A stretch of 64,000 bases of DNA from an uncultured Bacilli bacterium (lineage in GTDB: Bacteria > Bacillota_I > Bacilli_A > RF39 > UBA660): NCBI GenBank assembly GCA_944363795.1, contig CALVVG010000001.1:373-64372 (forward strand), given 5' to 3'. The notes under the pieces are model-generated. The model was not told the origin of the DNA and searched no databases. It saw only the letters and a program-made list of their open reading frames with translations. Below, in pieces: positions 2,004 to 52,508 of the stretch; position 1 is the first letter of the stretch; every line of letters starts with the position of its first letter. A program made the position numbers and the translations under genes.

Positions 2004-2222
2004 CTATCTTTTATTCCATGTTATTATCCCACGTGTTAAATCGTATGGTGACAATTCTACTGTAACTTTATCACCCAGTAAAATACGTATTAAGTGGACA
2101 CGCATTTTACCAGAAACGTAGGCTGTTACAGTATGACCATTTTCAAGTGTAACTAAATACATATTACCTTTTAATACTTCAGTTACAACACCTTCAACTT
2201 CAATTTTATCTTTTTTTCCCAT
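2004..2222 (-). CDS. infA: translation initiation factor IF-1
   Basis: A 72-aa ORF containing [38 protein letters not shown], the IF-1 S1-like fold. Confidence 0.9.
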
Positions 2223-2225
2223 ATT

Positions 2226-2969
2226 TTAGTCTCCCGTTAATATTTCATATCCGTCTTTTGTAACTAATACAGTATTTTCATAATGTGCTGATGGTTTACC
2301 ATCATAAGTTTTAACAGTCCAATCATCATCACACATGTATACTTTTTTACTTCCCAAATTAAGCATTGGTTCAATAGCAATGGTCATTCCAGCTTTTAAA
2401 ACTGTCATATTATTATCATCAAAATTTGGAACATCAGGTTCCTCATGCATCGAACTTCCAATTCCATGACCAACTAATTCTTCTACAACACTCAATCCAT
2501 GAGAATGTGCATAATCTTCAATTGCTCGACTTACATCACGAATACGAGCTCCTTCTTTTACTTTTTGCACACCAGCATAAAAAGCTTTTTTAGTATTTTC
2601 TACTAATTTTTTAACATCATCAGAAACCTTTCCAATAATATAAGTTCGAGTTGCATCAGCATGATAGCCTTTATAAGAAAGTACTAAATCGATAGATACA
2701 ATATCACCATTTTTAATTACTCTTTTACCTGGTATACCATGAACAACTTCATCATTAATAGAAATACATACACTTGCTGGATATCCTTGATAACCTAAAG
2801 TAGATGGTATACAATCGTTTTTTATTATAAAATCATAAATCACTTTATCTAATTTTCCAGTAGTTACACCTGGCTTTAAATATTTTTCAACTTCTTTAAA
2901 AGCTAGTTGATTATAACGTCCAGCTTCTTTCATTAATTCAATTTCACGTTCACTTTTAATATTAATCAT
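2226..2969 (-). CDS. map: type I methionine aminopeptidase
   Basis: A 247-aa ORF with the MetAP metal-ligand pattern, in the spc-operon position between adk and infA. Confidence 0.9.
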   Translation of the reverse strand: MINIKSEREIELMKEAGRYNQLAFKEVEKYLKPGVTTGKLDKVIYDFIIKNDCIPSTLGYQGYPASVCISINDEVVHGIPGKRVIKNGDIVSIDLVLSYKGYHADATRTYIIGKVSDDVKKLVENTKKAFYAGVQKVKEGARIRDVSRAIEDYAHSHGLSVVEELVGHGIGSSMHEEPDVPNFDDNNMTVLKAGMTIAIEPMLNLGSKKVYMCDDDWTVKTYDGKPSAHYENTVLVTKDGYEILTGD

Positions 2970-3603
2970 TAGTCACAACCTTCGATATATCATTAAATAT
3001 TTCATCAACACTTTTATCAACATTAATAATATTCAATTTGTTTTTTTCTTCATAATATTTTAATAATTTATCTGTATTTGTCAAGAAATTATCATATCTT
3101 ATTTTAAAAGAATCAACGTTATCATCATTTCTTTTAATTAGTTGTTTACCACATTTGTCACATATGCCATTTTGTTTTGGCTGTAATTTTTGATCAAATA
3201 TATTATATGTTTTACCACAACTACATGTAAGTCTACCCTCAACTCTTTTAATAGCAATATCTTTATCAAGCTTTAAATAAATTACTTGATAATTTGCATC
3301 ATCTAATAATTTATCTAATTCAATGCCTTGTTTAAGAGTTCTTGGAAAACCATCTAAAATAAATGGTTTTCCCTTAATTTTTGTAAGTTTATCTTTAATT
3401 AAATCAATCATTAAATCATCACTTACTAACTCTCCTTTATCCATTATATTTTTTACTTCTAATCCTAATTTGCTACCATTTGAAATAGCTTCCCTTAACA
3501 TGTCTCCGGTAGAAATATGCTCATAATCATACTTCTCTTTTAACATATGGCTTTGAGTTCCTTTACCTGCAGCAGGTGGAGCGATAAATATTATATTTTG
3601 CAT
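2962..3603 (-). CDS. adk: adenylate kinase
   Basis: A 213-aa ORF with the P-loop GPPGAGKGTQ-like motif (APPAAGKGTQ) and a Zn-finger lid (CxxC...CDKC). Confidence 0.9.
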   Translation of the reverse strand: MQNIIFIAPPAAGKGTQSHMLKEKYDYEHISTGDMLREAISNGSKLGLEVKNIMDKGELVSDDLMIDLIKDKLTKIKGKPFILDGFPRTLKQGIELDKLLDDANYQVIYLKLDKDIAIKRVEGRLTCSCGKTYNIFDQKLQPKQNGICDKCGKQLIKRNDDNVDSFKIRYDNFLTNTDKLLKYYEEKNKLNIINVDKSVDEIFNDISKVVTND

Positions 3604-3604
3604 T

Positions 3605-4870
3605 TTATCTTAATCTCTTTCTGCGCATTTTATAGCTACGGCTTATTAAACTACTTTCCATTTGTTTATATACTTCTATAGCAACTCCTACTACAATCAA
3701 TATTCCTGTACCTCCAATGCTAACTGAAGAATCTAATTTAAAAATTAAAGAAAATATAACTGATATACCAGCGATTACTGCTAAAAAAGTACTTCCAGCA
3801 AAAGTAAGCTTTCCTAAAGAATTTCCAATATATTCTTTTGTATCATCACCAGGTCTTACTCCAGGAATATAACCACCATTCTTATTTAAATTCTTGCTCA
3901 TTTCTTCTGGATTCATTACCATAAATGTATAAAAATAACCAAAGAAGAAAATTAATAAAATATATAATAAAAATCCGGTTGGAGTTGTATAAATAATATA
4001 TTTTTCAACAAAATCGATAGCACTTTGATTACCAATTAAACTTACAATAGTTGCAGGAATAGTAGTTAATATAGATGCAAATATTACTGGGATAACTCCC
4101 GCAGAATTAATTTTAATTGGTAAAAAGCTTTGTTGATGACCATAAGCACTACTTGATCTATTTGCATATTGGATTGGCAATCGTCTTTCAGCTAATTGTA
4201 TCCAAATAATACCTATAATAATTAATATATAAGATATAATAAATAAGCTAAAGAATAAAATTCCTAATCCACTAGAATATTTACCAGCTACTACAAACCC
4301 ATCATATGCCTCAGAAAAAATTTTAGGCATACTAAGTATAATACCAGCCATAATTAACATTGATTGTCCGTTACCAATACCTTTGTTTGTAATTTGATCT
4401 CCCATCCACAAACAAAATGCTGTTCCAGCAGTCATAACTAAAGATGTTTGAAGCATTTCAAATACTGTACTATCTTTCATGAAAAATACACATAAAACAT
4501 AAGCTTGAATAAAACCAATAATAATTCCTAAATATCTAGTAATCTTATTAATTTTTTGTCTTCCAACATATCCTTGTTCTTTTAAATCTTTAAAATATGG
4601 TATTATATCCATTTGCAACAATTGGGTTATAATTGACGCTGTAATATAAGGTGATACACCCATACCAAATATTGCAAAATTTTTAAGGCCTCCACCACTC
4701 ATAATGTTAAAAATTTCCAAGGTTTTTAAATCTTCAATAATAGTAGAAGCCCAAGGAACAGTTATTGAACAGCCCAAACAAAATATACTTAAGCAAAACA
4801 AGGTAAAATAGATTCTTTTTCTTAAGTCTTTATTTTCTTTGTTAAAAAGTTGGGAAAACCCACGAAACAT
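3605..4870 (-). CDS. secY: preprotein translocase SecY
   Basis: A 421-aa polytopic membrane protein in the spc-operon position. Confidence 0.9.
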   Translation of the reverse strand: MFRGFSQLFNKENKDLRKRIYFTLFCLSIFCLGCSITVPWASTIIEDLKTLEIFNIMSGGGLKNFAIFGMGVSPYITASIITQLLQMDIIPYFKDLKEQGYVGRQKINKITRYLGIIIGFIQAYVLCVFFMKDSTVFEMLQTSLVMTAGTAFCLWMGDQITNKGIGNGQSMLIMAGIILSMPKIFSEAYDGFVVAGKYSSGLGILFFSLFIISYILIIIGIIWIQLAERRLPIQYANRSSSAYGHQQSFLPIKINSAGVIPVIFASILTTIPATIVSLIGNQSAIDFVEKYIIYTTPTGFLLYILLIFFFGYFYTFMVMNPEEMSKNLNKNGGYIPGVRPGDDTKEYIGNSLGKLTFAGSTFLAVIAGISVIFSLIFKLDSSVSIGGTGILIVVGVAIEVYKQMESSLISRSYKMRRKRLR

Positions 4871-5314
4871 CTAAATCACCTCAGCTTTGCCACCGGAATT
4901 TTCAATTTTTGTAACAGCTTTACTAGAAAAACGATTAGCTTTAACAGTTAACTTTTTAGTTAGTTCCCCATTACCTAATATTTTTACACCAGCAAGTTGT
5001 TTTTTAATAATTTTTCTTTCCTTTAATACTTCTGGTGTAACAATATCACCATCATTAAAGAATTTTTCTAAATCTGCTAAATTAATTGTTGCATATCTAG
5101 TTGCAAATTTAGCATTATTAAAACCTCTTATCGGAATTCTTCTATGAAGTGGTGTTTGTCCTCCTTGGAACCAAGCTGCAATTGATGCTCCACTTCTAGA
5201 TTTTTGACCATTTTCTCCGCGAGTAGATGTTTTACCCATTCCACTTCCTGGTCCACGACCAACTCTTTTAGAAACTTTTGTTTCTTTACTTTTTGGTAAA
5301 TTTTCTAATTTCAT
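4871..5314 (-). CDS. rplO: 50S ribosomal protein L15 (the track ORF extends 13 codons upstream; the likely start is MKLENLP)
   Basis: The GRGPGSGMGKTSTRG motif is diagnostic of L15. The start was trimmed so that it does not overlap rpsE. Confidence 0.85.
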   Translation of the reverse strand: MKLENLPKSKETKVSKRVGRGPGSGMGKTSTRGENGQKSRSGASIAAWFQGGQTPLHRRIPIRGFNNAKFATRYATINLADLEKFFNDGDIVTPEVLKERKIIKKQLAGVKILGNGELTKKLTVKANRFSSKAVTKIENSGGKAEVI

Positions 5315-5315
5315 A

Positions 5316-5819
5316 TTATAATTCCTCAACTTTCTTGCCACGAAGTTCAGCAATATGTTCTGGAGTTCTTTGGCTTTTTAAAGCTTTTAAAGTTGCTTTA
5401 GCAACATTAACTTGAGTATTTGCCCCTAATGATTTAGCAACAATGTCTTTAACACCAGCTAATTCTAAAACAGCCCGAGCAGCACCACCAGCAATAATTC
5501 CACGACCTTCTTTAGCTGGCTTAATAAATACTTGAGCACGACCAACTTTTGAAATCATTTCATGAGGAATTGTTCTGCCATCTTTTAAAGCAATTTTACA
5601 AACATTTTTATTAGCTGCTTGTAAGGCTTTTTTTATCGCTTCTGGTACTTCATTAGCTTTACCGCTACCAATACCAACTAAACCTTTTCTATTTCCAACA
5701 GCTACTGTTGCAGAGAAACGGAAATGTCTTCCACCTTGAGTAACTTTAGTAACTCTGGTAATTGAGATAACTTTTTCTTCTAATAAATTCTTTTTTTGAT
5801 CATTTTTTTGATTTCTCAT
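5316..5819 (-). CDS. rpsE: 30S ribosomal protein S5
   Basis: A 167-aa ORF with the S5 dsRBD-like motifs. It directly abuts rplO, so no L30 gene lies between them. Confidence 0.9.
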   Translation of the reverse strand: MRNQKNDQKKNLLEEKVISITRVTKVTQGGRHFRFSATVAVGNRKGLVGIGSGKANEVPEAIKKALQAANKNVCKIALKDGRTIPHEMISKVGRAQVFIKPAKEGRGIIAGGAARAVLELAGVKDIVAKSLGANTQVNVAKATLKALKSQRTPEHIAELRGKKVEEL

Positions 5820-5828
5820 ACTACCTCC

Positions 5829-6185
5829 CTAAAATTCTAGTCCCGCTTCTCTTGCTGCTTCAGCAAGAGCTGCTACTCGACCATGATACACATAACCACC
5901 ACGATCAAATACGACATTTTTTATTTTTAATTTAATACATTTTTCAGCAATATCTTTTCCTACTTTTTGAGCAGCTTCAATATTACCACCATTTTTTATT
6001 TTTAATTCAAGATTTGAAGAACTTGCTAGGGTAGTGCCCGTTACATCATCAATAACTTGAGCATAAATGCCTTTATTAGATCTAAATATATTTAGTCTTG
6101 GACATTCAGCAGTTCCACTAACAGTTTTACGAACTCTTTCATGTCTTCTTACACGAGCCTTATTATTTGCTTCTTTTTTAATCAT
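5829..6185 (-). CDS. rplR: 50S ribosomal protein L18
   Basis: A 118-aa ORF in spc-operon order with the L18 C-terminus GGYVYHGRV. Confidence 0.9.
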
Positions 6186-12566: not shown

Positions 12567-13349
12567 TTATTTACTTTCTTCTTGTCCTTCTGCAGCAACT
12601 GATGCATTTTCAGTTTCCAAATTGTTATTTTCTTCTTGCGTTTCTTGAGAGTTTGCAGGTTCTTCAACTACTTCATCTACAACACTTTCAGATTCATACA
12701 CAAGAATTTCTTTTGGATCTTCTTTACGAGAATTTTTTACTGCATTTTTTATTAACACTAAAGAATTTTTAGCTCCTGGAATATTTCCACTTATTAAAAT
12801 ATAGTTTTCATTTTCGTTTACTTCAATAATTTCTAAGTTTTGAATAGTAACCGTTTCAACACCCATGTGTCCAGCTAACTTTTTACCTTTCAAAACTCTT
12901 TTTGGTAACATTGTTCCTAATGAACCTGGGCCTCTATGATAATGTGAACCATGTCCCATAGGTCCGCGAGATTGGTTATGTCTTTTAATAACACCTTGAA
13001 AACCTTTCCCCTTACTAGTTCCTGTTACATCAACTATTTCTCCCACTTCAAATATTGAAGCTTTAATAGTATCGCCAATATTATATTCTGCATCTACATC
13101 TCTTATTTCTTTTAAGAAGCGCTTAGGTGTTGTATTGGCTTTTTTAGCATTTCCCATTTCTGGTTTATTTGCACTTTTTTCTTTTTTTTCAAATACGCCT
13201 AGTTGGATTCCATTATACCCATTTTTTTCAACAGTTTTGACTTGCATTACCACATTTGGTTCAACTTCTACTACCGTCACAGGGATAAGTTTACCTTCCT
13301 TGGTAAACACTTGAGTCATTCCAACTTTGCGCCCTAAGATTCCTTTCAT
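12567..13349 (-). CDS. rplC: 50S ribosomal protein L3 with an acidic C-terminal extension of about 50 aa
   Basis: A canonical L3 core ([15 protein letters not shown]...) followed by an E/Q/N-rich tail (...[32 protein letters not shown]). Confidence 0.85.
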
Positions 13350-13368
13350 AATTTAATTCCTTTCCTTA

Positions 13369-13683
13369 TTATAGTTTTACATTTACATTAACACCACTTG
13401 GTAAATCTAAATGAGTCAATGCATCAATTGTTTCTTTGCTAGGATTTTTAATATCTATTAATCTTTTATGAGTTCTTCTCTCAAATTGTTCTCTAGCATC
13501 TTTATATTTGTGTACTGCTCTTAATACTGTAACTTTTTCAATTTCTGTTGGTAGGGGAACAGGTCCAGAAATTTCACCACCAGTTCTTTTAACAGTTTCC
13601 ACAATTTTCCCAGCTGCAATATCTAATAATCGATGATCGTAAGCTTTCAAATTGATTCTCACTTTTGTACTTGACACTTTCAT
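13369..13683 (-). CDS. rpsJ: 30S ribosomal protein S10 (start trimmed to [17 protein letters not shown], 104 aa)
   Basis: The S10 N-terminus IRIRLKAFDH is matched from the internal Met, and a GGAGGA RBS sits immediately upstream. The track ORF start lies inside the leader. Confidence 0.85.
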
Positions 13684-13850
13684 GTCCTCCTTTCGCCTAT
13701 ATCTAGTATAGACATACTCCGCACAAGTTCTCTGACTCATCTTTACTACCAACCTGTCCTAGTGTATCAGTAACCTTGCACATCAACGCAGTCATACGTG
13801 TTTAATTATAACATTACACTATATGAAAATGCAATAAAAAAATGCTTATT
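13684..13850 (-). promoter_or_regulatory. S10-operon 5' leader: a locally GC-rich, presumably structured untranslated region upstream of rpsJ
   Basis: A stretch of about 165 nt between the gpmI stop and the rpsJ RBS is markedly more GC-rich than the surrounding sequence. This is consistent with an autoregulatory leader structure. Confidence 0.4.
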
Positions 13851-13908
13851 TTTGCATTTTTCTTTATATTTCGATTAAAAAATCTAAATTTTTACCCTTT
13901 AATATGTT

Positions 13909-15417
13909 TTATTCTTCCATTATTAAAGAATTAGTATTATTCATTTCTTCAGGTATAGATATATCCATATAATCAAGAATTGTTGGAGCAACATTTACTA
14001 AGGATCCATTTTGAACTAATTTGATTTTATCATCGCAAATAATAAAAGGGACTTTACTATTTGTATGAGTTGTACAAATACTTCCATCTTCATTTAGCAT
14101 TTTTTCAGCATTTCCATGATCAGACAAAATAATGATTTTATAAAAATTTTCTTCTGCTTTTTCAATTATTTTTCCTAAACAAATATCTAAAGCCATGCAA
14201 GCTTTAATTGTTGCATCCAAATTACCAGTATGTCCTACCATATCAGGATTGGCAAAATTAGCTAATATAAAATCATAATCATTATTCATAGCATTAACTA
14301 TTTTTTTTGTGACTTCAACGCAATTCATTTCTGGCTTTAAATCATAAGTTGCTACATTAGGAGATGGAACATTAATTTTATCACATTTTTCAATTTTTCC
14401 ATCGTATCCTCCGTCAAAAAAGTATGTCACATGAGGATATTTTTCGCTTTCTGCTATTCTAGCTTGGGTAAATTCTAATTCACTTAAATACACGCCTAAA
14501 GTATGAGTAATTTCCGGTGGTTCAATTAAATTCAATGTCTTTATTTTTTTATCTATTGGTAAAAAAGTAAATACTAATGTATCGCTCAAATCTTTAACAG
14601 CAAAGTTACTAAAAGAATTGCAATTAACAATTGCATTAAGTATTTGTTTAGAACGATCAGCTCTATAATTCATCCAAATTATTACATCACCATTTTTAAT
14701 TAAATTTTTAGAAGCAATAATAGGTTTTATAAATTCATCAGTAATACCACTACCATAGCAAGAAGTAATAGATCTTTCTAAATCAAGTGCCCCTCTGCCA
14801 ATACCATTAACAATCAAATCATAATATATTTTAACTCTATCCCAATGTTGATCTCTATCCATAGCATAATATCTTCCACAAACTGATGTTATATCTCCAA
14901 TATTATTTTTTTTAATTAAATTTTGAATAATAGATATATATTTATATGCCGATTTTACATCAGTATCACGCCCATCTGTAATTAAATGAAAATGAATTTT
15001 TGTAAAATTATTATTTATTAAAAATTGATACATATTTATAAAATCATCTATTCCTGCATGAATATTACCATCACTACATAGTCCTAATATGTGAATATCT
15101 TTATCTACGCAAGATAAGAGCTTATTAATATTTTTACTTTCTGAAGGTATATTAGCAAAAAATTCATTAACTAAAACTTCTGGTTGTTTAACAATTCTTC
15201 CAGCACCAATTGTTAAATGACCTACTTCACTATTCCCCATTTGACCATGGTTTAAACCAACAGCTTCCTCTGAAGCATTTAATAAAGCATGCGGATATTT
15301 TTGCCACAAATTTTCAAAATTATTCATTTTTGATAACTTTACAGCATTCCCTTTTTCCTCATCTCGAATACCAAATCCATCAAAAATAATTGTTAATATT
15401 TTTTTCAACATATTCAC
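13909..15417 (-). CDS. gpmI: 2,3-bisphosphoglycerate-independent phosphoglycerate mutase
   Basis: A 502-aa ORF with iPGM metal-binding motifs (the DGRDT..., SDHGN patterns). Confidence 0.9.
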   Translation of the reverse strand: MNMLKKILTIIFDGFGIRDEEKGNAVKLSKMNNFENLWQKYPHALLNASEEAVGLNHGQMGNSEVGHLTIGAGRIVKQPEVLVNEFFANIPSESKNINKLLSCVDKDIHILGLCSDGNIHAGIDDFINMYQFLINNNFTKIHFHLITDGRDTDVKSAYKYISIIQNLIKKNNIGDITSVCGRYYAMDRDQHWDRVKIYYDLIVNGIGRGALDLERSITSCYGSGITDEFIKPIIASKNLIKNGDVIIWMNYRADRSKQILNAIVNCNSFSNFAVKDLSDTLVFTFLPIDKKIKTLNLIEPPEITHTLGVYLSELEFTQARIAESEKYPHVTYFFDGGYDGKIEKCDKINVPSPNVATYDLKPEMNCVEVTKKIVNAMNNDYDFILANFANPDMVGHTGNLDATIKACMALDICLGKIIEKAEENFYKIIILSDHGNAEKMLNEDGSICTTHTNSKVPFIICDDKIKLVQNGSLVNVAPTILDYMDISIPEEMNNTNSLIMEE

Positions 15418-15445
15418 CTTCTTTTTTATGATATCATAATTTTAT

Positions 15446-15470
15446 TCACAAAAAAAGACTTATCAGTCTT
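15446..15470 (-). terminator. Rho-independent terminator downstream of spo0A
   Basis: The hairpin AAGACUgauaAGUCUU is followed by a U7 run on the minus strand, directly 3' of the spo0A stop. Confidence 0.5.
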
Positions 15471-15472
15471 CA

Positions 15473-16237
15473 TTACCCAATATATTCTTTACGTTTTAAT
15501 TTAACACGATCTGCGATAGTAGTTAAAAATTCCGAATTGGTTGGTCTACTTCTTTCAAAATCTACACTATTACCAAATATTTGTTCCATAAGTTTTATAT
15601 CTCCTCTAATCCAACTTATTTCAATGGCATGTCTTATAGCTCTTTCTACTCTAGTTGCAGTTGTTTGATATCTGCTAGCTATTTCTGGATATATTTCTTT
15701 GGTAATTAATTGCATTGCTTCATCACCAGTATACAATAACATTATTCCTTCTCTAATATATCTATAACCTTTAACATGACTAGGTATTCCTAAATCATGT
15801 AATAAGGTACTAACTTCTATTTCTACACTTAAACTATTATCTCTTTTTATTTCTAATTTATCTTTAAATAGTTCTTCAATCCTACTTTCTAATACTTCCA
15901 TTTCCACAGGTTTTAATAAATAATATTCTGCTTTCAATTTTTGAATTTTCTTTATAGTATAATCATCTTTAAAACTTGATAATACTATTACTTTTTTATT
16001 TATATTAGAATTTCTCATTTCTTCTAATATTTTTATTCCATCAATTCTCGGCAATAAAATATCTAATAATACTAGATCATACTCTTCGCTTTGACTTTTT
16101 AAATAATCTAAACCTTCTTTGCCATCTTTAAAAGTTCCTACTACTTCTATATTTCCGCTTTCTTTAAAATATTTCTTTACACTGCTTAATACTGCTTCAT
16201 TATCATCTATCATGATAACTCTTATTGTTTTATTCAT
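15473..16237 (-). CDS. spo0A: sporulation master regulator Spo0A (start likely at the internal MNKTIRVIMIDDN)
   Basis: A REC domain joined to the Spo0A-specific C-terminal domain: TTATRVERAIRHAIEISWIRG and RPTNSEFLTTIADRVKLK match the Spo0A DNA-binding domain signature. Confidence 0.9.
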   Translation of the reverse strand: MNKTIRVIMIDDNEAVLSSVKKYFKESGNIEVVGTFKDGKEGLDYLKSQSEEYDLVLLDILLPRIDGIKILEEMRNSNINKKVIVLSSFKDDYTIKKIQKLKAEYYLLKPVEMEVLESRIEELFKDKLEIKRDNSLSVEIEVSTLLHDLGIPSHVKGYRYIREGIMLLYTGDEAMQLITKEIYPEIASRYQTTATRVERAIRHAIEISWIRGDIKLMEQIFGNSVDFERSRPTNSEFLTTIADRVKLKRKEYIG

Positions 16238-16364
16238 TTTGTTCCTTTCCTTATTAAATATTTTAATGCTGCACATGTCTTCATTATAAATGACAATCCA
16301 ACAAATTACTACAAAATCTTTTGTCGAGTTATGTAAATGCCTGTAAATAATTGTCTAATAAAGA

Positions 16365-17090
16365 CTACTTTACTATTTCTAAAAGTATTTCTTTTACCTG
16401 ATTTATATTTAACGAGGAACTTCCAATTAAAAAACCATCTAAATTTTTAATACTATTTATACTTTCGATATTATCTTTATTAATGCTACCTCCATATAAT
16501 ACTAAAAAATTAGTATCATATTTTTCTTCTACAATATCTTTTATAAATTGAATAGTTTCTTTAATTTCCTTTATTTCTGGGGTAACACCTGTTCCTATAG
16601 CCCAAACAGGTTCATATGCTATTATGATATTTTTTAATTCAACATTATTTAATACTTCACTTATTTGTTTTTCAAGTACCATATAAGTATTGCCATTTTC
16701 TTTATCATTTAAAGTTTCTCCTATACAATAAATTATATTAATTTCATTTTCTATTGCATTATTAATTTTATTAATAAAGTCAATATTGATTTCATTTTTA
16801 TAAATCCTTCTTTCGCTATGTCCTACTAATACATAATTTACTCCTATGCTTTTAAGTTGCTCACCGGTTACTTCGCCAGTAATAGTTTTATCTATAAAAG
16901 ATGTAATATCTTGTGCACCTAATTCATAATTTGAGCCATCAAAATAAGCTAAAAACGGCAAAGAAGGTATTAATACCAATTTAACCTTTTTAGCTTCTAT
17001 TTCGTTTATCTGATTTTTATATTTTATAATCTCTTCTTTTACAAATTTATTTTTAAAATTACAAACTAAATACTTCATAACTCCATCCAT
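16365..17090 (-). CDS. tpiA: triosephosphate isomerase
   Basis: A 241-aa ORF with the TIM motifs (GHSERR, AYEPVWAIGTG). The start is either the first Met or MKYLV, the latter forming an ATGA overlap with the pgk stop. Confidence 0.9.
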   Translation of the reverse strand: MDGVMKYLVCNFKNKFVKEEIIKYKNQINEIEAKKVKLVLIPSLPFLAYFDGSNYELGAQDITSFIDKTITGEVTGEQLKSIGVNYVLVGHSERRIYKNEINIDFINKINNAIENEINIIYCIGETLNDKENGNTYMVLEKQISEVLNNVELKNIIIAYEPVWAIGTGVTPEIKEIKETIQFIKDIVEEKYDTNFLVLYGGSINKDNIESINSIKNLDGFLIGSSSLNINQVKEILLEIVK

Positions 17091-18202
17091 TCCAAAGCTG
17101 CTAATTTTCCATCTGTAATATATTCTAAAGTTGCTCCACCACCGCTTGATACAAATGCAAAATCATCTATGTAACCAAATTTTTTTACTGCAGATGCAGT
17201 ATCACCACCACCAACAATCACTTTTTTATTACTATTTTTTAAAATCTTAAATAATCCACTTGTTCCTTCAGTAAATCTTTCATCTTCAAATTTGCCACAA
17301 GTTCCATTAACAAATATTATTTCACTATTATCTATATATTTTTTATATAAATCTAAACTTTTGCTACCAATATCATATATGATTCCATCATCTAATGTAA
17401 AATCTATTGGTAATATTATTTTTCCTTTATATTTATCCATTAAATTTTTCAGTTCAGCAAGTATACCTTCATCATTTGTTGCAATGCTATTACCAACATC
17501 TGCTCCCTTTGCTTTTAAAAATGAATTAGCAATTCCACCACCAGTTAGCAAGAAATCACATCTATTGAGCAAAGATTTAATAATAGGTAATTTATCATCC
17601 ACTTTTGCGCCTCCCATAAAAACGCAAAATGGATGAGGTGTATTTTTTACTAAAATACTTAAATTCTTTAATTCTTCTTCTATTAAAAAACCTATACAAT
17701 GAGGGATAAATTTAGCTATACCAGCCGTTGATGCATGAGCACGATGCACTGATCCAAATGCATCATTAACAAATATGTCTCCCAAACTTGCCCAAAATTT
17801 TGCAAGATCTAAATTATTTCCACTTTCTAACTTTTCGGGATAGTCCATAATTCTTGTATTTTCAAGTAAAATAATATCACCTTTGTTACATGAATCAACA
17901 AACTCTTTGACTTTTTCTCCAGTACATTTATCTACAAATTTGACTTCTCTTTCAAGTAAATTACTAAGTTCTTGCCCCACATACTTTAAGGTTTTCTTTT
18001 GTTTATCTTCTTCACTTTTAACTCTACCTAAATGACTCAATATAACTATCTTGCAATTATTATTTAACAAATATCTTAAAGTTGGAATACTTTTTTTTAT
18101 TTTAGAGTTATCTTTAATTATATTGCCTTCCATTGGTACATTATAATCACATCTTAATATTATATTTTTATTTTTAATGTCTAATTCATTTATTTTTTTC
18201 AT
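17075..18202 (-). CDS. pgk: phosphoglycerate kinase
   Basis: A 375-aa ORF with a PGK N-terminus (RCDYNVPM) and typical glycine-rich motifs. Confidence 0.9.
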   Translation of the reverse strand: MKKINELDIKNKNIILRCDYNVPMEGNIIKDNSKIKKSIPTLRYLLNNNCKIVILSHLGRVKSEEDKQKKTLKYVGQELSNLLEREVKFVDKCTGEKVKEFVDSCNKGDIILLENTRIMDYPEKLESGNNLDLAKFWASLGDIFVNDAFGSVHRAHASTAGIAKFIPHCIGFLIEEELKNLSILVKNTPHPFCVFMGGAKVDDKLPIIKSLLNRCDFLLTGGGIANSFLKAKGADVGNSIATNDEGILAELKNLMDKYKGKIILPIDFTLDDGIIYDIGSKSLDLYKKYIDNSEIIFVNGTCGKFEDERFTEGTSGLFKILKNSNKKVIVGGGDTASAVKKFGYIDDFAFVSSGGGATLEYITDGKLAALEWMEL

Positions 18203-18249
18203 ATTTTTCCTTTCATAACGAAAATAAAAATACTATTGTATTATTTATT

Positions 18250-18912
18250 TTACATAGCATTTTTTTGCATAATAATATTCGCATTCATAGATTTATTTGT
18301 ATTTGCCTGTTGATCACTATCTAAATTAATAAAGGATACAGTAAATTGCCATTGTTGTGTAGTAGCTGAAGTACTATTTGCTGTTATTTGGTAATTTGAT
18401 GCAATAGCAAATACACCATTAGCAGTTGTAATATCAAAGCCACTAACTGTTTGTTGTGTACCACCAGTAGTTGTTGTAGTTATATTTTCTTTATATGTAA
18501 GTCCAGACACTGAAGTAACTTTAGCTCCTGTTGGATCAGTTATAGTTAAAAGTATTTCCGGTTTAGAATCAGAGGTTGTATAGACAAATTCATTTGAATT
18601 AATACTAAAATAAACATAATACCCATACGTTGCAGTGTTAGTACTATTATTAGCTAATAATCTTACAGTACCAGTAGCATTACTTGTTAAATTTCCTGCA
18701 CCAATACCAAAATTAAATTGATTAATATTTAAATTAATTTCATTATTAATATCGAAAGTTAAACTATCAGTTGTATTAGATGATATATTTAGATTTTGTT
18801 GCGTACTATTCATTAATTGTGCTTGAAAAAAAGCATAAGTTACTGTAGACACTAAAACAATTAATATTGCTACAACTATTATTGTTATTTCAATTTTTTT
18901 TCTTTGTTCCAT
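18250..18912 (-). CDS. hypothetical membrane-anchored protein, N/T/S-rich and predicted beta-rich ectodomain, no recognisable family
   Basis: A 220-aa ORF with an N-terminal KK-then-hydrophobic signal anchor. A sigmaA-like promoter (TTGAAT-17-TAAAAT) and an RBS lie upstream, following the gap terminator. Confidence 0.5.
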   Translation of the reverse strand: MEQRKKIEITIIVVAILIVLVSTVTYAFFQAQLMNSTQQNLNISSNTTDSLTFDINNEINLNINQFNFGIGAGNLTSNATGTVRLLANNSTNTATYGYYVYFSINSNEFVYTTSDSKPEILLTITDPTGAKVTSVSGLTYKENITTTTTGGTQQTVSGFDITTANGVFAIASNYQITANSTSATTQQWQFTVSFINLDSDQQANTNKSMNANIIMQKNAM

Positions 18913-18989
18913 ACTTATCTATCCTTACTATTTAAATTTTAACATGATTAAATATTTTATTCAAGTATATATTAAACTAGTTGTATGTA

Positions 18990-19024
18990 AATTAAAAAAT
19001 TGTAAACATTTTTATTTACAATTT
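18990..19024 (-). terminator. Rho-independent terminator downstream of gap
   Basis: The hairpin AAUUGUAAAuaaaaaugUUUACAAUU plus a U-run lies immediately 3' of the gap stop on the minus strand. Confidence 0.5.
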
Positions 19025-20026
19025 TTATTCAAACATTTTTTTTGCCGTCCTAAGCATTTGAGCTGTATATCCATATTCATTATCATACCAAGCAACAATT
19101 TTAACTAACTGAGTATCATTAGATTCTACTATACTTGTTGATAATCCATCAACAACTGCCCCATACTTTTTTCCTAAAATATCACTAGAAACTATTGGGT
19201 CCATAGTAATCATAATTGTTTCATTTTGATTATCCATAAATAACTTGGTAATTTCTTCAATACTTGTTTTTTTGTTCAACTCTAATGTAACATCAATTAA
19301 TGAACCATCAGCTACCGGTATTCTATAAGCAATTCCATCCAATTTATTTAATAGTTCCGGAATAACTAAACTTATTGCTTTTGCTGCTCCTGTAGATGCC
19401 GGAACAATATTTTGAGCACAAGCACGTCCACGTCTAGCTTTAATGCCCTTTTTATGAGCTATATCCAAAGTAGCTTGATCATTTGTATATGCATGAACTG
19501 TACTCATAAATCCTTTTTTTATCCCTATATTATCGTTAATAATTTTTAATACTGGTGCTAAACAATTTGTTGTACAACTGGCTGCTGAAACTATTTTATC
19601 GTCATTAGTTAATATATCATCATTAACATTATATACAATTGTTTTCATTAATCCTTTACCAGGAGCAGATATAAGTACTTTTTTGGCTCCTGCATCTAAA
19701 TGCTTTTTAGCATCTTCATAAGCCGTAAATTTTCCAGTACATTCTAATACTAAATCAACATTCAAATCTTTCCAAGGTAATTTTTCTGGATCTTTTTCAC
19801 AATAAACTTTAATGTGTTTACCAGCAACAACTAAATCATTACCTTCAAAATCTATTTCATTTTCATGAAAAGAACGATGAACAGTATCATACTTAACCAA
19901 ATATGCTAAATCCTCTGCACTTGTTAAATCATTGATAGCTACAATATCAAAATCCGTTTGTGTAACTATTTGCCTAAAAGCTAATCTCCCTATTCTACCA
20001 AAACCATTAATTGCAACTTTAATCAT
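19025..20026 (-). CDS. gap: glyceraldehyde-3-phosphate dehydrogenase
   Basis: A 333-aa ORF with NGFGRIGR Rossmann and ASCTTNC catalytic motifs. Confidence 0.9.
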   Translation of the reverse strand: MIKVAINGFGRIGRLAFRQIVTQTDFDIVAINDLTSAEDLAYLVKYDTVHRSFHENEIDFEGNDLVVAGKHIKVYCEKDPEKLPWKDLNVDLVLECTGKFTAYEDAKKHLDAGAKKVLISAPGKGLMKTIVYNVNDDILTNDDKIVSAASCTTNCLAPVLKIINDNIGIKKGFMSTVHAYTNDQATLDIAHKKGIKARRGRACAQNIVPASTGAAKAISLVIPELLNKLDGIAYRIPVADGSLIDVTLELNKKTSIEEITKLFMDNQNETIMITMDPIVSSDILGKKYGAVVDGLSTSIVESNDTQLVKIVAWYDNEYGYTAQMLRTAKKMFE

Positions 20027-21665
20027 TATATTTTCCTCCTATAAATTCTCTTAAAATTGAATCATCATTAACATACTCTCCAGGAATTGGAAAAAATGTC
20101 TTTAAAAAATCAATCAATCTTCTTGCTTCTTCATAGTATATCGAATCTACTCCAACAGATAATAATAAAGGCTCAACATACACCTTTAATACTCCTATCT
20201 CATATGTTAATGCCGTATTTAAAATTGTATCAGCTTGATGAATATATGGAAAAATATATTTTTCTTCTCCATTACGAACATTTTGCCAATTATCAATTGT
20301 ATTAATTACATCATAACCTCGTGTTCTATTATCTCTTACAATTCTTCTTAACAATCTCAAATCTAATGTTGATACATAATTATGTTCATCAATATTTAAA
20401 GGTATAAAAGGACTTAAATAAATTTTATATTTGTGCTTAAAATCAATATCTTTAGTTAATTCATCATTTAATGCATGTAATCCTTCGATTAAAAATATAC
20501 TATTTTCGTATAATTTAATTTTCTTATTAGAATATTCCCTTTTACCAGTTATAAAATTATAACTAGGTAAAATAATTTCTTCCCCATTTAATAATTTATT
20601 TAAATCATCATTAAATGTTTTTATGTCTATAGCTTCTAGACATTCGAAATCATATTTATTATTCTCATCTTTAGGTGTTTCATGCCTTTCAACAAAATAA
20701 TCATCTAAACTTATTTTTATTGTATTATATCCCAAAGCCTCTAAATAAGATGCTATTTTAGCTGTTGTCGTTGTTTTTCCAGATGAAGATGGACCAGCTA
20801 TTAATAGAAATTTAATATCATGATTATTAATAATTTTATCGACTATTTTAGAAATGTTTAAGCTAAACATTAACTCATTAGCCCGAATAAAATCTCTTAT
20901 TTTACCACTGCTAATATTTTTATTTAAATCGCTTACATAAGGCATTTTTAAATTATCTAACCATTGTTTGCCTGATAAAAATGATTCTATTATATTATCA
21001 TAATGGACATATTCCAAAACATTTCCCTTACTTCTAACACTTGGAAACATAAAAACTATTCGATTATTACCTAAATAAATTAATTGGTATTTATTAATAA
21101 AACCAGTAGAATAAGGCATTAAAGAATAAAAATAATTAAATTTTTGATGTAATCTATACATAGTTACCATTTTATCATTTATACTTTGAATGTTATAAGC
21201 TTTTTCATATTCATTATTTTTTTTATAAAAATGAATAGCTTCTTTTGATGTAATATTATATTTATATATAATAGCATTTTCATCTACAATCTGAGCCATT
21301 TTTTCTTTTATTCTACTTAAATCATCTTGAGTCAAAATTTTATTTCCTTTTACTACTCCAAGCATACCTCTAGGAACACTATGTTCGTAGCTAATTTCTA
21401 ATTCAGGAAATATTTCAACTAAAGCAACTTCAAACAAAAATTTTAATCCAGCCTTATAAATTTTATTGCCTATAATATCATTAGTATTAATGAATTCTAT
21501 TTTTTCATCTTTTAATGCTTTAGTGTCTAAAGAATATATTTCATTATTTACTTTATATCCCATAATATTTTCCATAGTAAAATCCTTACTTATTTCAAAG
21601 TATGAGATTCCTTTTTCATATTCATGAATTGTATTATCCTGAAAAGTAATTTTTACTTTACTCAT
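20019..21665 (-). CDS. udk: uridine kinase family protein with an N-terminal ThrRS/TGS-like domain
   Basis: A 548-aa ORF whose C-terminal half carries the P-loop GPSSSGKTTT, typical of uridine/cytidine kinase. The long N-terminal extension matches the clostridial-type bifunctional architecture. Confidence 0.6.
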   Translation of the reverse strand: MSKVKITFQDNTIHEYEKGISYFEISKDFTMENIMGYKVNNEIYSLDTKALKDEKIEFINTNDIIGNKIYKAGLKFLFEVALVEIFPELEISYEHSVPRGMLGVVKGNKILTQDDLSRIKEKMAQIVDENAIIYKYNITSKEAIHFYKKNNEYEKAYNIQSINDKMVTMYRLHQKFNYFYSLMPYSTGFINKYQLIYLGNNRIVFMFPSVRSKGNVLEYVHYDNIIESFLSGKQWLDNLKMPYVSDLNKNISSGKIRDFIRANELMFSLNISKIVDKIINNHDIKFLLIAGPSSSGKTTTTAKIASYLEALGYNTIKISLDDYFVERHETPKDENNKYDFECLEAIDIKTFNDDLNKLLNGEEIILPSYNFITGKREYSNKKIKLYENSIFLIEGLHALNDELTKDIDFKHKYKIYLSPFIPLNIDEHNYVSTLDLRLLRRIVRDNRTRGYDVINTIDNWQNVRNGEEKYIFPYIHQADTILNTALTYEIGVLKVYVEPLLLSVGVDSIYYEEARRLIDFLKTFFPIPGEYVNDDSILREFIGGKYND

Positions 21666-49446: not shown

Positions 49447-49504
49447 AATTTTCCTCCCTAATGAGTGCCTATTGTACTTTATTTAAATTGTAAATTATGT
49501 CGAA

Positions 49505-52136: not shown

Positions 52137-52508
52137 AACCTCACCCCACTAACAATATTTCCTTGAATACATTTTAAACCATTTTTGATAAAAATAAAAG
52201 TACAAAATACAATAAATAATAATCAAAAATTAATCAACAAAATTATTAACAAAAAATATAAGATAAATTCGACAAAAAACGACATTATCCACAAAATCAA
52301 CAAATATAAAATAACAAAAATTATAAATCAACAAATTATCAACGGTATAGTTAATAAAATGTTGTTAATTATGTTTAAAGTTATCCACATTTTATCAACA
52401 ACCCACATTAATTTGTGGGGATAATCCAAAAATAAACGTTTTTTCCTTGACTTATTTAGATGATTAATATTATAATAAAAAAGCTAAAGAAAAGGAGAAA
52501 GTGTAATA
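52137..52508. other. oriC DnaA-box cluster between dnaA and rpmH
   Basis: Consensus TTATCCACA boxes at 52285-52293 and 52381-52389, TTATCAACA at 52392-52400, an inverted TGTGGGGATAA at 52414-52424, TTATCAACG at 52336-52344, plus several weaker TNATCAACA boxes. Confidence 0.8.

Follow-up and report, generated by a model that had tools for sequence, protein, structure and literature searches.

A spo0A gene between tpiA and gpmI in uncultured Bacilli: conserved gene order and a conserved promoter region with candidate 0A boxes

Introduction

The response regulator Spo0A and its self-regulation are textbook knowledge, and the spo0A gene is normally found behind spoIVB. Here I describe a spo0A gene that instead lies between tpiA and gpmI, within the order gap-pgk-tpiA-gpmI, in a 64,000-nucleotide (nt) stretch of DNA from an uncultured Bacilli bacterium (assembly GCA_944363795.1, contig CALVVG010000001.1, positions 373 to 64,372). 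This whole stretch is referred to as the window, and its coordinates are counted from its first letter. Comparison of the gene, its flanks and its promoter region with those of relatives makes it very probable that this is a genuine Spo0A gene, kept as a separate and self-regulated transcription unit, which happens to lie inside the glycolysis gene order.

Two well-described spo0A loci invite comparison. That of Bacillus subtilis follows spoIVB and has the promoters Pv (sigma-A) and Ps (sigma-H) together with the boxes 0A1-0A4. In this species Spo0A feeds back on its own gene (PMC12090719). The window gene is similar in that it encodes an orthologous response regulator and has 0A boxes upstream, but its neighbours are tpiA and gpmI, a single sigma-A-type -10 element is visible, and the boxes are all placed upstream of the -10, on the opposite strand. 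In Clostridioides difficile the Spo0A DNA-binding domain binds in vitro to a consensus 0A box located 75 nt upstream of the spo0A ATG, and G2, C4 and G5 of the box are specific protein contacts (PMC3485338). The window likewise has a core box of the TGTCGAA type less than about 100 nt from the start codon, with these three contacts kept. However, the orientation of the box is reversed, and spo0A of C. difficile depends on sigma-H and stands behind spoIVB.

The spoIIG promoter of B. subtilis is a sigma-A promoter that is activated by phosphorylated Spo0A and has an overlong spacing between its -35-like and -10 elements. In the window promoter a -35-like hexamer and a perfect -10 are separated by 20 nt, and the box precedes this -10 by 33 nt, a possible likeness that I treat as a lead only. 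The order gap, pgk, tpiA, gpmI on one strand recalls the classical Firmicute operon cggR-gapA-pgk-tpiA-gpmI-eno. In the window this order is split into several units: an open reading frame (ORF) separates gap from pgk, spo0A separates tpiA from gpmI, eno is missing, and the S10 ribosomal operon comes directly afterwards. Stable linkage of a sporulation-initiation gene to genes of central carbon metabolism has a precedent in Spo0F, for which such linked genes serve as markers (PMC6136694), although the gene and the neighbourhood are different and the precedent concerns linkage, not functional coupling. A literature search for spo0A together with tpiA and gpmI, partial in its coverage, returned nothing relevant, and the lineage-wide gene order set out below is apparently undescribed.

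Identity of the gene

The coding sequence at 15473-16237 (minus strand) specifies a protein of 254 amino acids (aa) that carries every hallmark of Spo0A and, judged by them, is a genuine Spo0A, as the original prediction held. Its full-length score for the NCBIfam equivalog TIGR02875 is 248.5 bits (cutoff 200). By Pfam, the ORF 15473-16276(-) matches Response_reg at 1.4e-23 and Spo0A_C (PF08769) at 6.1e-37, the latter match spanning positions 1-103 of the 104 in the profile. At about 1e-35 the C-terminal half can be aligned with two solved DNA-binding domains, 1FC3 and 1LQ1, and the recognition-helix segment RVERAIRHAIE is identical between the window protein and both structures. In the receiver domain the residues D11, D12, D59, S87/S88 and K109 are invariant among 15 sequences of the clade; they stand for the acidic pocket, the Asp that accepts the phosphate, and the conserved Ser/Thr and Lys positions. 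The exact protein recurs on 13 gut-metagenome contigs, with the same neighbours on all of them.

Translation probably begins with the ATG at 16237, which is preceded by a ribosome-binding site (RBS), GGAAAGGA, at 16243-16250. I prefer it to the longer reading from 16276, which was rejected, because relatives close the longer frame with early stop codons whereas both the ATG and the RBS are conserved. As a Spo0A gene it is ordinary, and so is its apparent feedback design.

A conserved promoter region with candidate 0A boxes

Scanning one genome per GTDB species yielded ten related species, whose Spo0A proteins are 64-88% identical to that of the window (loci from the scans carry L numbers). Their records carry the labels 'uncultured Bacilli bacterium' or Candidatus Onthocola stercoravium, apart from one metagenome-assembled genome labelled Muribaculaceae (L014). 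Alignment A1 covers the 165 nt upstream of the spo0A start codon in 12 sequences from 11 species, namely the window and these ten relatives. Its core block (columns 48-132, 85 nt) has a mean pairwise identity of 0.80, compared with 0.41 in the flank further upstream and 0.60 at the third positions of the spo0A codons in these species. By this measure the 85 nt upstream of spo0A are under strong purifying selection.

The most recognizable element of the promoter, read like the gene on the minus strand, is its -10, TATAAT (16283-16288), which is invariant in 12/12 sequences. TTGTAG (16309-16314) is likewise invariant in A1. The original prediction had joined these two hexamers into a sigma-A-like promoter with an 18-nt spacer. 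The -10 stands, but the gap is 20 nt, so the pair is not returned by a consensus promoter scan and TTGTAG is no standard sigma-A -35. Nor does the window promoter contain any acceptable -35 at 16-18 nt from TATAAT. Two TTTACA hexamers about 10 nt apart (16332-16347, minus strand; TTGACA in L016) occupy near-invariant columns and were also tried as -35 elements, and rejected because an acceptable -10 is absent at 16-18 nt. Just downstream of the -10 lies a near-invariant element, CATGTGCAG (16269-16277, minus strand), a candidate start-site region or operator. The ATG within it is not a conserved start codon, because an ORF opens there only in the window lineage (L008 reads ATG TGC AGT AAA TAG). 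Inspected by eye, the conserved block showed no cre site and no sigma-H motif, the latter a further difference from B. subtilis spo0A.

The proximal candidate 0A box reads CTCGACA in gene direction (TGTCGAG on the plus strand; 16322-16328) and ends 33 nt upstream of the -10. Taken within the window alone, such a match is at chance level. Boxes with at most one mismatch number 106 against 116 expected from shuffles, perfect boxes number 5 against 2.95 expected, which is not significant, and the probability of at least one match with at most one mismatch in the tpiA-spo0A spacer is about 0.18. Yet conservation across species supports the box that was originally picked out from the window. Its TCGACA is invariant in all 12 sequences, and the full site reads CTCGACA in the window and L015, GTCGACA in L007, and perfect TTCGACA, the reverse complement of TGTCGAA, in eight of the ten related species. 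In these eight, another perfect box precedes it by 40 nt. In the window G2, C4 and G5 of the proximal box are retained, and at 16352-16358 the sequence TTAGACA, read in the direction of the gene (TGTCTAA on the plus strand), forms a degenerate 0A-like box that aligns with the invariant GACA of the relatives' GTGACAA.

The same signal appears when all loci are considered, including 80 further ones obtained by a metagenome scan with a universal Spo0A motif. Within 200 nt before spo0A there are 44 perfect 0A boxes in 40 loci of the clade that contains the window, where 1.3 would be expected, and 41 in 48 other loci, at a background of 0.03 per 200 nt. Since both sets are enriched, Spo0A feedback on its own gene would be a general feature. 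Orientation separates the two sets. Every one of the 44 clade boxes reads TTCGACA in gene direction, whereas TGTCGAA is the usual reading, in that same direction, of the promoter-proximal box at loci linked to spoIVB. This reversal suggests that the promoter was evidently rebuilt, rather than carried along, when the gene moved.

Perfect 0A boxes also occur elsewhere in the window. One lies at 49498-49504, about 52 nt before the ATG of a ComK-family gene (PF06338, 49015-49446(-), between dnaN and recF), and has the orientation seen at spo0A. Another occupies 52268-52274(-) in the origin region, where it lies in the spacer preceding dnaA, about 132 nt from the start of that gene.

Boundaries of the transcription unit

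Downstream, spo0A is followed by a predicted intrinsic terminator (15449-15471, minus strand), a 7-bp hairpin GAAGACU-GAUA-AGUCUUU and then a U-run, with a free energy of -6.9 kcal/mol. A hairpin and T-run stand immediately after the spo0A stop codon in 11/11 species (-4.5 to -15.5 kcal/mol), which agrees with the terminator originally proposed between spo0A and gpmI. The stems differ in sequence from species to species, for example GGGGA/UCCUC, GGAAA/UUUCC, GGGCA/UGCUC and GGAC/GUCC, and hairpins kept with different stems are the pattern expected of a real intrinsic terminator. Their z-scores are -2.7 to -5.9 in nine of the 11 species and weaker in the window (-1.9) and L007 (+0.06).

The next gene, gpmI, is found directly after spo0A in 10/10 related species, across a short and constant gap, and is predicted to have a promoter of its own. 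This is marked by an extended -10, TGATATCAT (15428-15436, minus strand), about 20 nt before the gpmI RBS. In alignment A2, which holds 11 sequences, TGnTAnnAT is invariant in 11/11 and the fuller TGnTATnAT is present in 10/11. The conserved promoter block, the terminator and the separate -10 of gpmI together argue that spo0A is a separate transcription unit and not an internal gene of an operon.

These boundaries have to be weighed against the alternative that survives best, although I find it doubtful: spo0A might be a functional member of a glycolytic operon, transcribed mainly by read-through from gap/pgk, so that the level of the regulator would follow glycolytic expression. The genes do lie on one strand, and the closest species, L007, has the same compact junction. 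In the window no terminator-like structure was found after tpiA in the spacer, which comes to 127 nt on recounting and not the 128 nt first given. Because both the window and L007 are without a tpiA terminator, read-through from pgk-tpiA is possible there, and to this extent the earlier suggestion of glycolytic read-through may hold for this lineage. Read-through is, however, no conserved property. Strong terminators follow tpiA in L009 and L012 (20-22-bp hairpins, -23 to -26 kcal/mol), and others are found in L015, L045 and L047. The tpiA-spo0A gap ranges from 127 nt to 2.7 kb among relatives, and the longer gaps, of 1.3-2.7 kb, contain unrelated genes, among them, in L012, an opposite-strand ORF of 311 aa and, in L013, a 402-aa ATPase related to DUF4143-family proteins together with a 335-aa opposite-strand ORF. 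Even gap and pgk are split from one another by variable genes. Set beside what co-transcription in a glycolytic operon would look like, spo0A has its own strongly conserved promoter block and its own terminator, gpmI has its own -10, and the junction with tpiA is not conserved, so that only the missing tpiA terminator speaks for membership.

Some relatives show further peculiarities at this junction. Two distant clade members (L045 5885-5950 and L047 2300-2365) carry their 0A box within the loop of the hairpin that forms the tpiA terminator. In L007 an 860-bp near-perfect duplication (one mismatch; 2160-3019 and 4487-5346) comprises the promoter and nearly all of spo0A and flanks a gene for a 431-aa DUF4143-like ATPase, 29-30% identical to Pfam-confirmed members. 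The first copy of spo0A has a terminator of its own and differs in its last 8 residues. Either the duplication happened very recently or it is an artefact of assembly.

Gene order across Spo0A loci

Among the ten closely related species, seven have pgk and/or tpiA upstream of spo0A, with both on the contig in six of the seven. In the remaining three neither was found within the 0.3-3.2 kb of sequence upstream of spo0A. The same placement is also seen at L026. In a simple midpoint-rooted neighbour-joining tree of Spo0A, the proteins 41-63% identical to the query fall, except for L057, in one monophyletic clade with that of the window.

Gene order follows this clade sharply when the count is confined to loci with at least 1 kb of upstream sequence and tpiA or pgk is required to lie on the same strand as spo0A. 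Within the clade, tpiA or pgk is upstream in 30/35 loci and spoIVB in 0/35, compared with 0/40 and 29/40, respectively, among all other Spo0A loci (34-41% identical). Fisher P values for the split are 4e-16 (tpiA/pgk) and 5e-12 (spoIVB), both only nominal because the loci are related to one another. The non-clade loci thus bear out the expectation that spo0A elsewhere normally follows spoIVB, and Pfam recognized Peptidase_S55 in 8/8 of the upstream genes tested from that group. Searching by tblastn with Pfam-confirmed SpoIVB proteins from canonical loci detected no spoIVB in the window or in any clade locus. The canonical arrangement, with spoIVB immediately upstream of spo0A, is therefore not seen in the window, and the claim that this spo0A lies away from spoIVB is borne out. 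On the loci recovered, the placement is not particular to this genome and is the rule across a deep Spo0A clade of uncultured Bacilli, for whose proteins every source name recovered was 'Bacilli bacterium' or Candidatus Onthocola (Bacilli incertae sedis).

The rule has exceptions. In L033, L037 and L042 spo0A has other neighbours, and several clade loci have lipid or glycosyltransferase genes between pgk and tpiA or between pgk and spo0A. At L042, which has no glycolytic neighbours, a hybrid histidine kinase with a receiver domain (4107-5888) lies directly upstream of spo0A and is a candidate sporulation kinase.

Recurrence of the arrangement in relatives also bears on whether the gene might be a paralogue with a diverged role, with a canonical spoIVB-spo0A locus elsewhere in the genome. 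The original prediction had taken an arrangement universal in relatives, combined with a separate spoIVB-spo0A locus, as grounds for this very reading. The first part agrees with what I found, since the arrangement is common; of the second there is no trace, as no separate spoIVB-spo0A locus was seen in the window or the clade loci. The sequence covered is the 64-kb window and the locus flanks, and Spo0A paralogues are known in some Clostridiales (bioRxiv 10.1101/2022.02.25.481979). The same study reports a single copy in 107 of 118 Spo0A-positive genomes, with paralogues rare outside Clostridiales. In the GTDB scan, whose search patterns were orthologue-specific, there was one spo0A locus per genome, the tandem pair of L007 lying on one contig. 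The equivalog score above the cutoff, the DNA-recognition helix identical to that of characterised Spo0A, upstream 0A boxes as enriched as at canonical loci, and the rarity of paralogues all weigh against a paralogue, and spoIVB is missing from every locus of the clade. I consider this explanation quite unlikely.

Recent insertion or horizontal acquisition of spo0A into the glycolytic cluster of this particular genome is barely credible, for although the tpiA-spo0A gap is a hot spot for insertions (DUF4143 ATPase genes, the 335-aa and 311-aa ORFs, the 860-bp duplication in L007), the same placement persists down to 41-49% Spo0A identity and the loci that have it form one clade in the Spo0A tree. 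In these distant members the flanking pgk and tpiA are only 27-48% identical to those of the window, so the arrangement must be old. The relocation was probably ancient and vertically inherited.

The DUF4143/AAA_14 ATPase genes deserve separate mention. They adjoin spo0A in 9 of about 41 clade loci, upstream in L007, L011, L013 and L016 and downstream in L032, L035, L036, L045 and L047, and the groups are only 24-30% identical to each other. Because the proteins of L011 and L013 are 99.75% identical while the flanking DNA is about 87% identical, a mobile gene is suggested.

Gene order in the window

On the minus strand of the window the order is a 548-aa uridine-kinase-like gene, gap, a 220-aa ORF, pgk, tpiA, spo0A, gpmI, and rpsJ with the rest of the S10 ribosomal operon. 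The glyceraldehyde-3-phosphate dehydrogenase gene gap (19025-20026) was identified by Pfam Gp_dh_N and Gp_dh_C on an identical contig, pgk (17075-18202) by Pfam PGK, and tpiA (16365-17090) by Pfam TIM (5e-61). The stop codon of tpiA directly abuts the spo0A promoter block. The gene for the cofactor-independent phosphoglycerate mutase, gpmI (13909-15411 in the ORF 13909-15417, with the start as on the identical contig), scores 532.9 bits against TIGR01307 (cutoff 330.65). With these neighbours identified, the position of spo0A between tpiA and gpmI is as first described, and so is the want of eno after gpmI, where rpsJ stands instead. No enolase gene was found in about 55 kb of the contig with Pfam calls.

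The 220-aa ORF between gap and pgk (18250-18912, minus strand) has no Pfam or NCBIfam match. Its product has a hydrophobic N-terminal segment and a body rich in Thr and Asn, and homologues with 63-67% identity occur in the same gap-pgk gap of L009, L013 and L015. The spacing between gap and pgk among relatives is 1.4 to 5.7 kb. An Rfam search of 13000-21000 found no known RNA family in the tpiA-spo0A spacer. At 13693-13794(-), the expected place upstream of rpsJ, it gave a sub-threshold match to the S10-Clostridia ribosomal-protein leader (25.2 against 35.1 bits, E = 0.07).

Further sporulation genes within the window are bofA, spoVT, yabG, spoVG and yabP, and the presence of bofA suggests, indirectly, that the sigma-K checkpoint is retained. 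The genes dnaA and dnaN lie at 49.5-52.1 kb, which places spo0A about 35 kb from the origin region.

Discussion

If spo0A is kept here as a separate, self-regulated transcription unit, its control may be pictured as follows. Phosphorylated Spo0A would bind the conserved candidate box or boxes, the proximal one about 33 nt upstream of the -10, and would thereby modulate a sigma-A-type promoter that has no usable -35 and whose only good element is the -10. Activation would be the more likely sign of regulation, given the location of the box upstream of the promoter core and the 20 nt between the -35-like TTGTAG and the -10, which is reminiscent of the Spo0A-activated spoIIG promoter. The outcome would be a feedback loop like that known in B. 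subtilis and C. difficile. In the window lineage, where a tpiA terminator is missing, some low basal transcription may also enter from pgk-tpiA.

Several points weigh against this reading of the locus. The window's own proximal box is imperfect, matching 6/7 positions with the mismatch at box position 7, and the distal perfect box of the relatives is missing from the window and L007, where the tpiA stop codon occupies that position. The terminator in the window is the second weakest of the set (-6.9 kcal/mol; L007, -4.5 kcal/mol), so read-through into gpmI is possible. Where transcription starts, which sigma factor is used and whether Spo0A activates or represses are all read from the DNA sequence. 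On the side of gene order, the relatedness of the loci tempers the P values and the tree that defines the clade is a simple neighbour-joining one; with the window and the locus flanks as the scope, a second spo0A or a spoIVB elsewhere in the genome is possible.

A bolder history can be sketched, one that I offer as speculation and think improbable in its entirety. In the ancestor of a large radiation of these uncultured, reduced-genome Bacilli, spo0A would have left the spoIVB locus for a block of glycolysis and ribosomal-protein genes, and its promoter would have been rebuilt as a sigma-A type with inverted 0A boxes and no sigma-H promoter. The basal level of the regulator would then have become tied to growth-rate-controlled transcription and to origin-proximal gene dosage, with glycolytic read-through replacing the vegetative promoter wherever the tpiA terminator is absent. 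No functional link between glycolysis and sporulation is shown by the present comparison, and the placement is not operon-level coupling.

Since Spo0A and its feedback are familiar, what is new is the sharp split in neighbourhood, by which one deep Spo0A clade has pgk/tpiA upstream and never spoIVB, and the orientation of its 0A boxes, opposite to that of the promoter-proximal box at most spoIVB-linked loci. Linkage of tpiA and spo0A, together with the promoter block, could be used as a marker of the lineage and to predict the Spo0A regulon in metagenomes. For annotation pipelines, it means that adjacency to spoIVB is unreliable for calling spo0A. Finally, according to published predictions, spo0A and a reduced set of sporulation genes are retained in uncultured orders that are relatives of Erysipelotrichales and Mycoplasmatales (PMC10868615), with which the source names recovered for the clade agree. 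A conserved promoter of apparently autoregulatory design supports the view that Spo0A is still in use in these orders.

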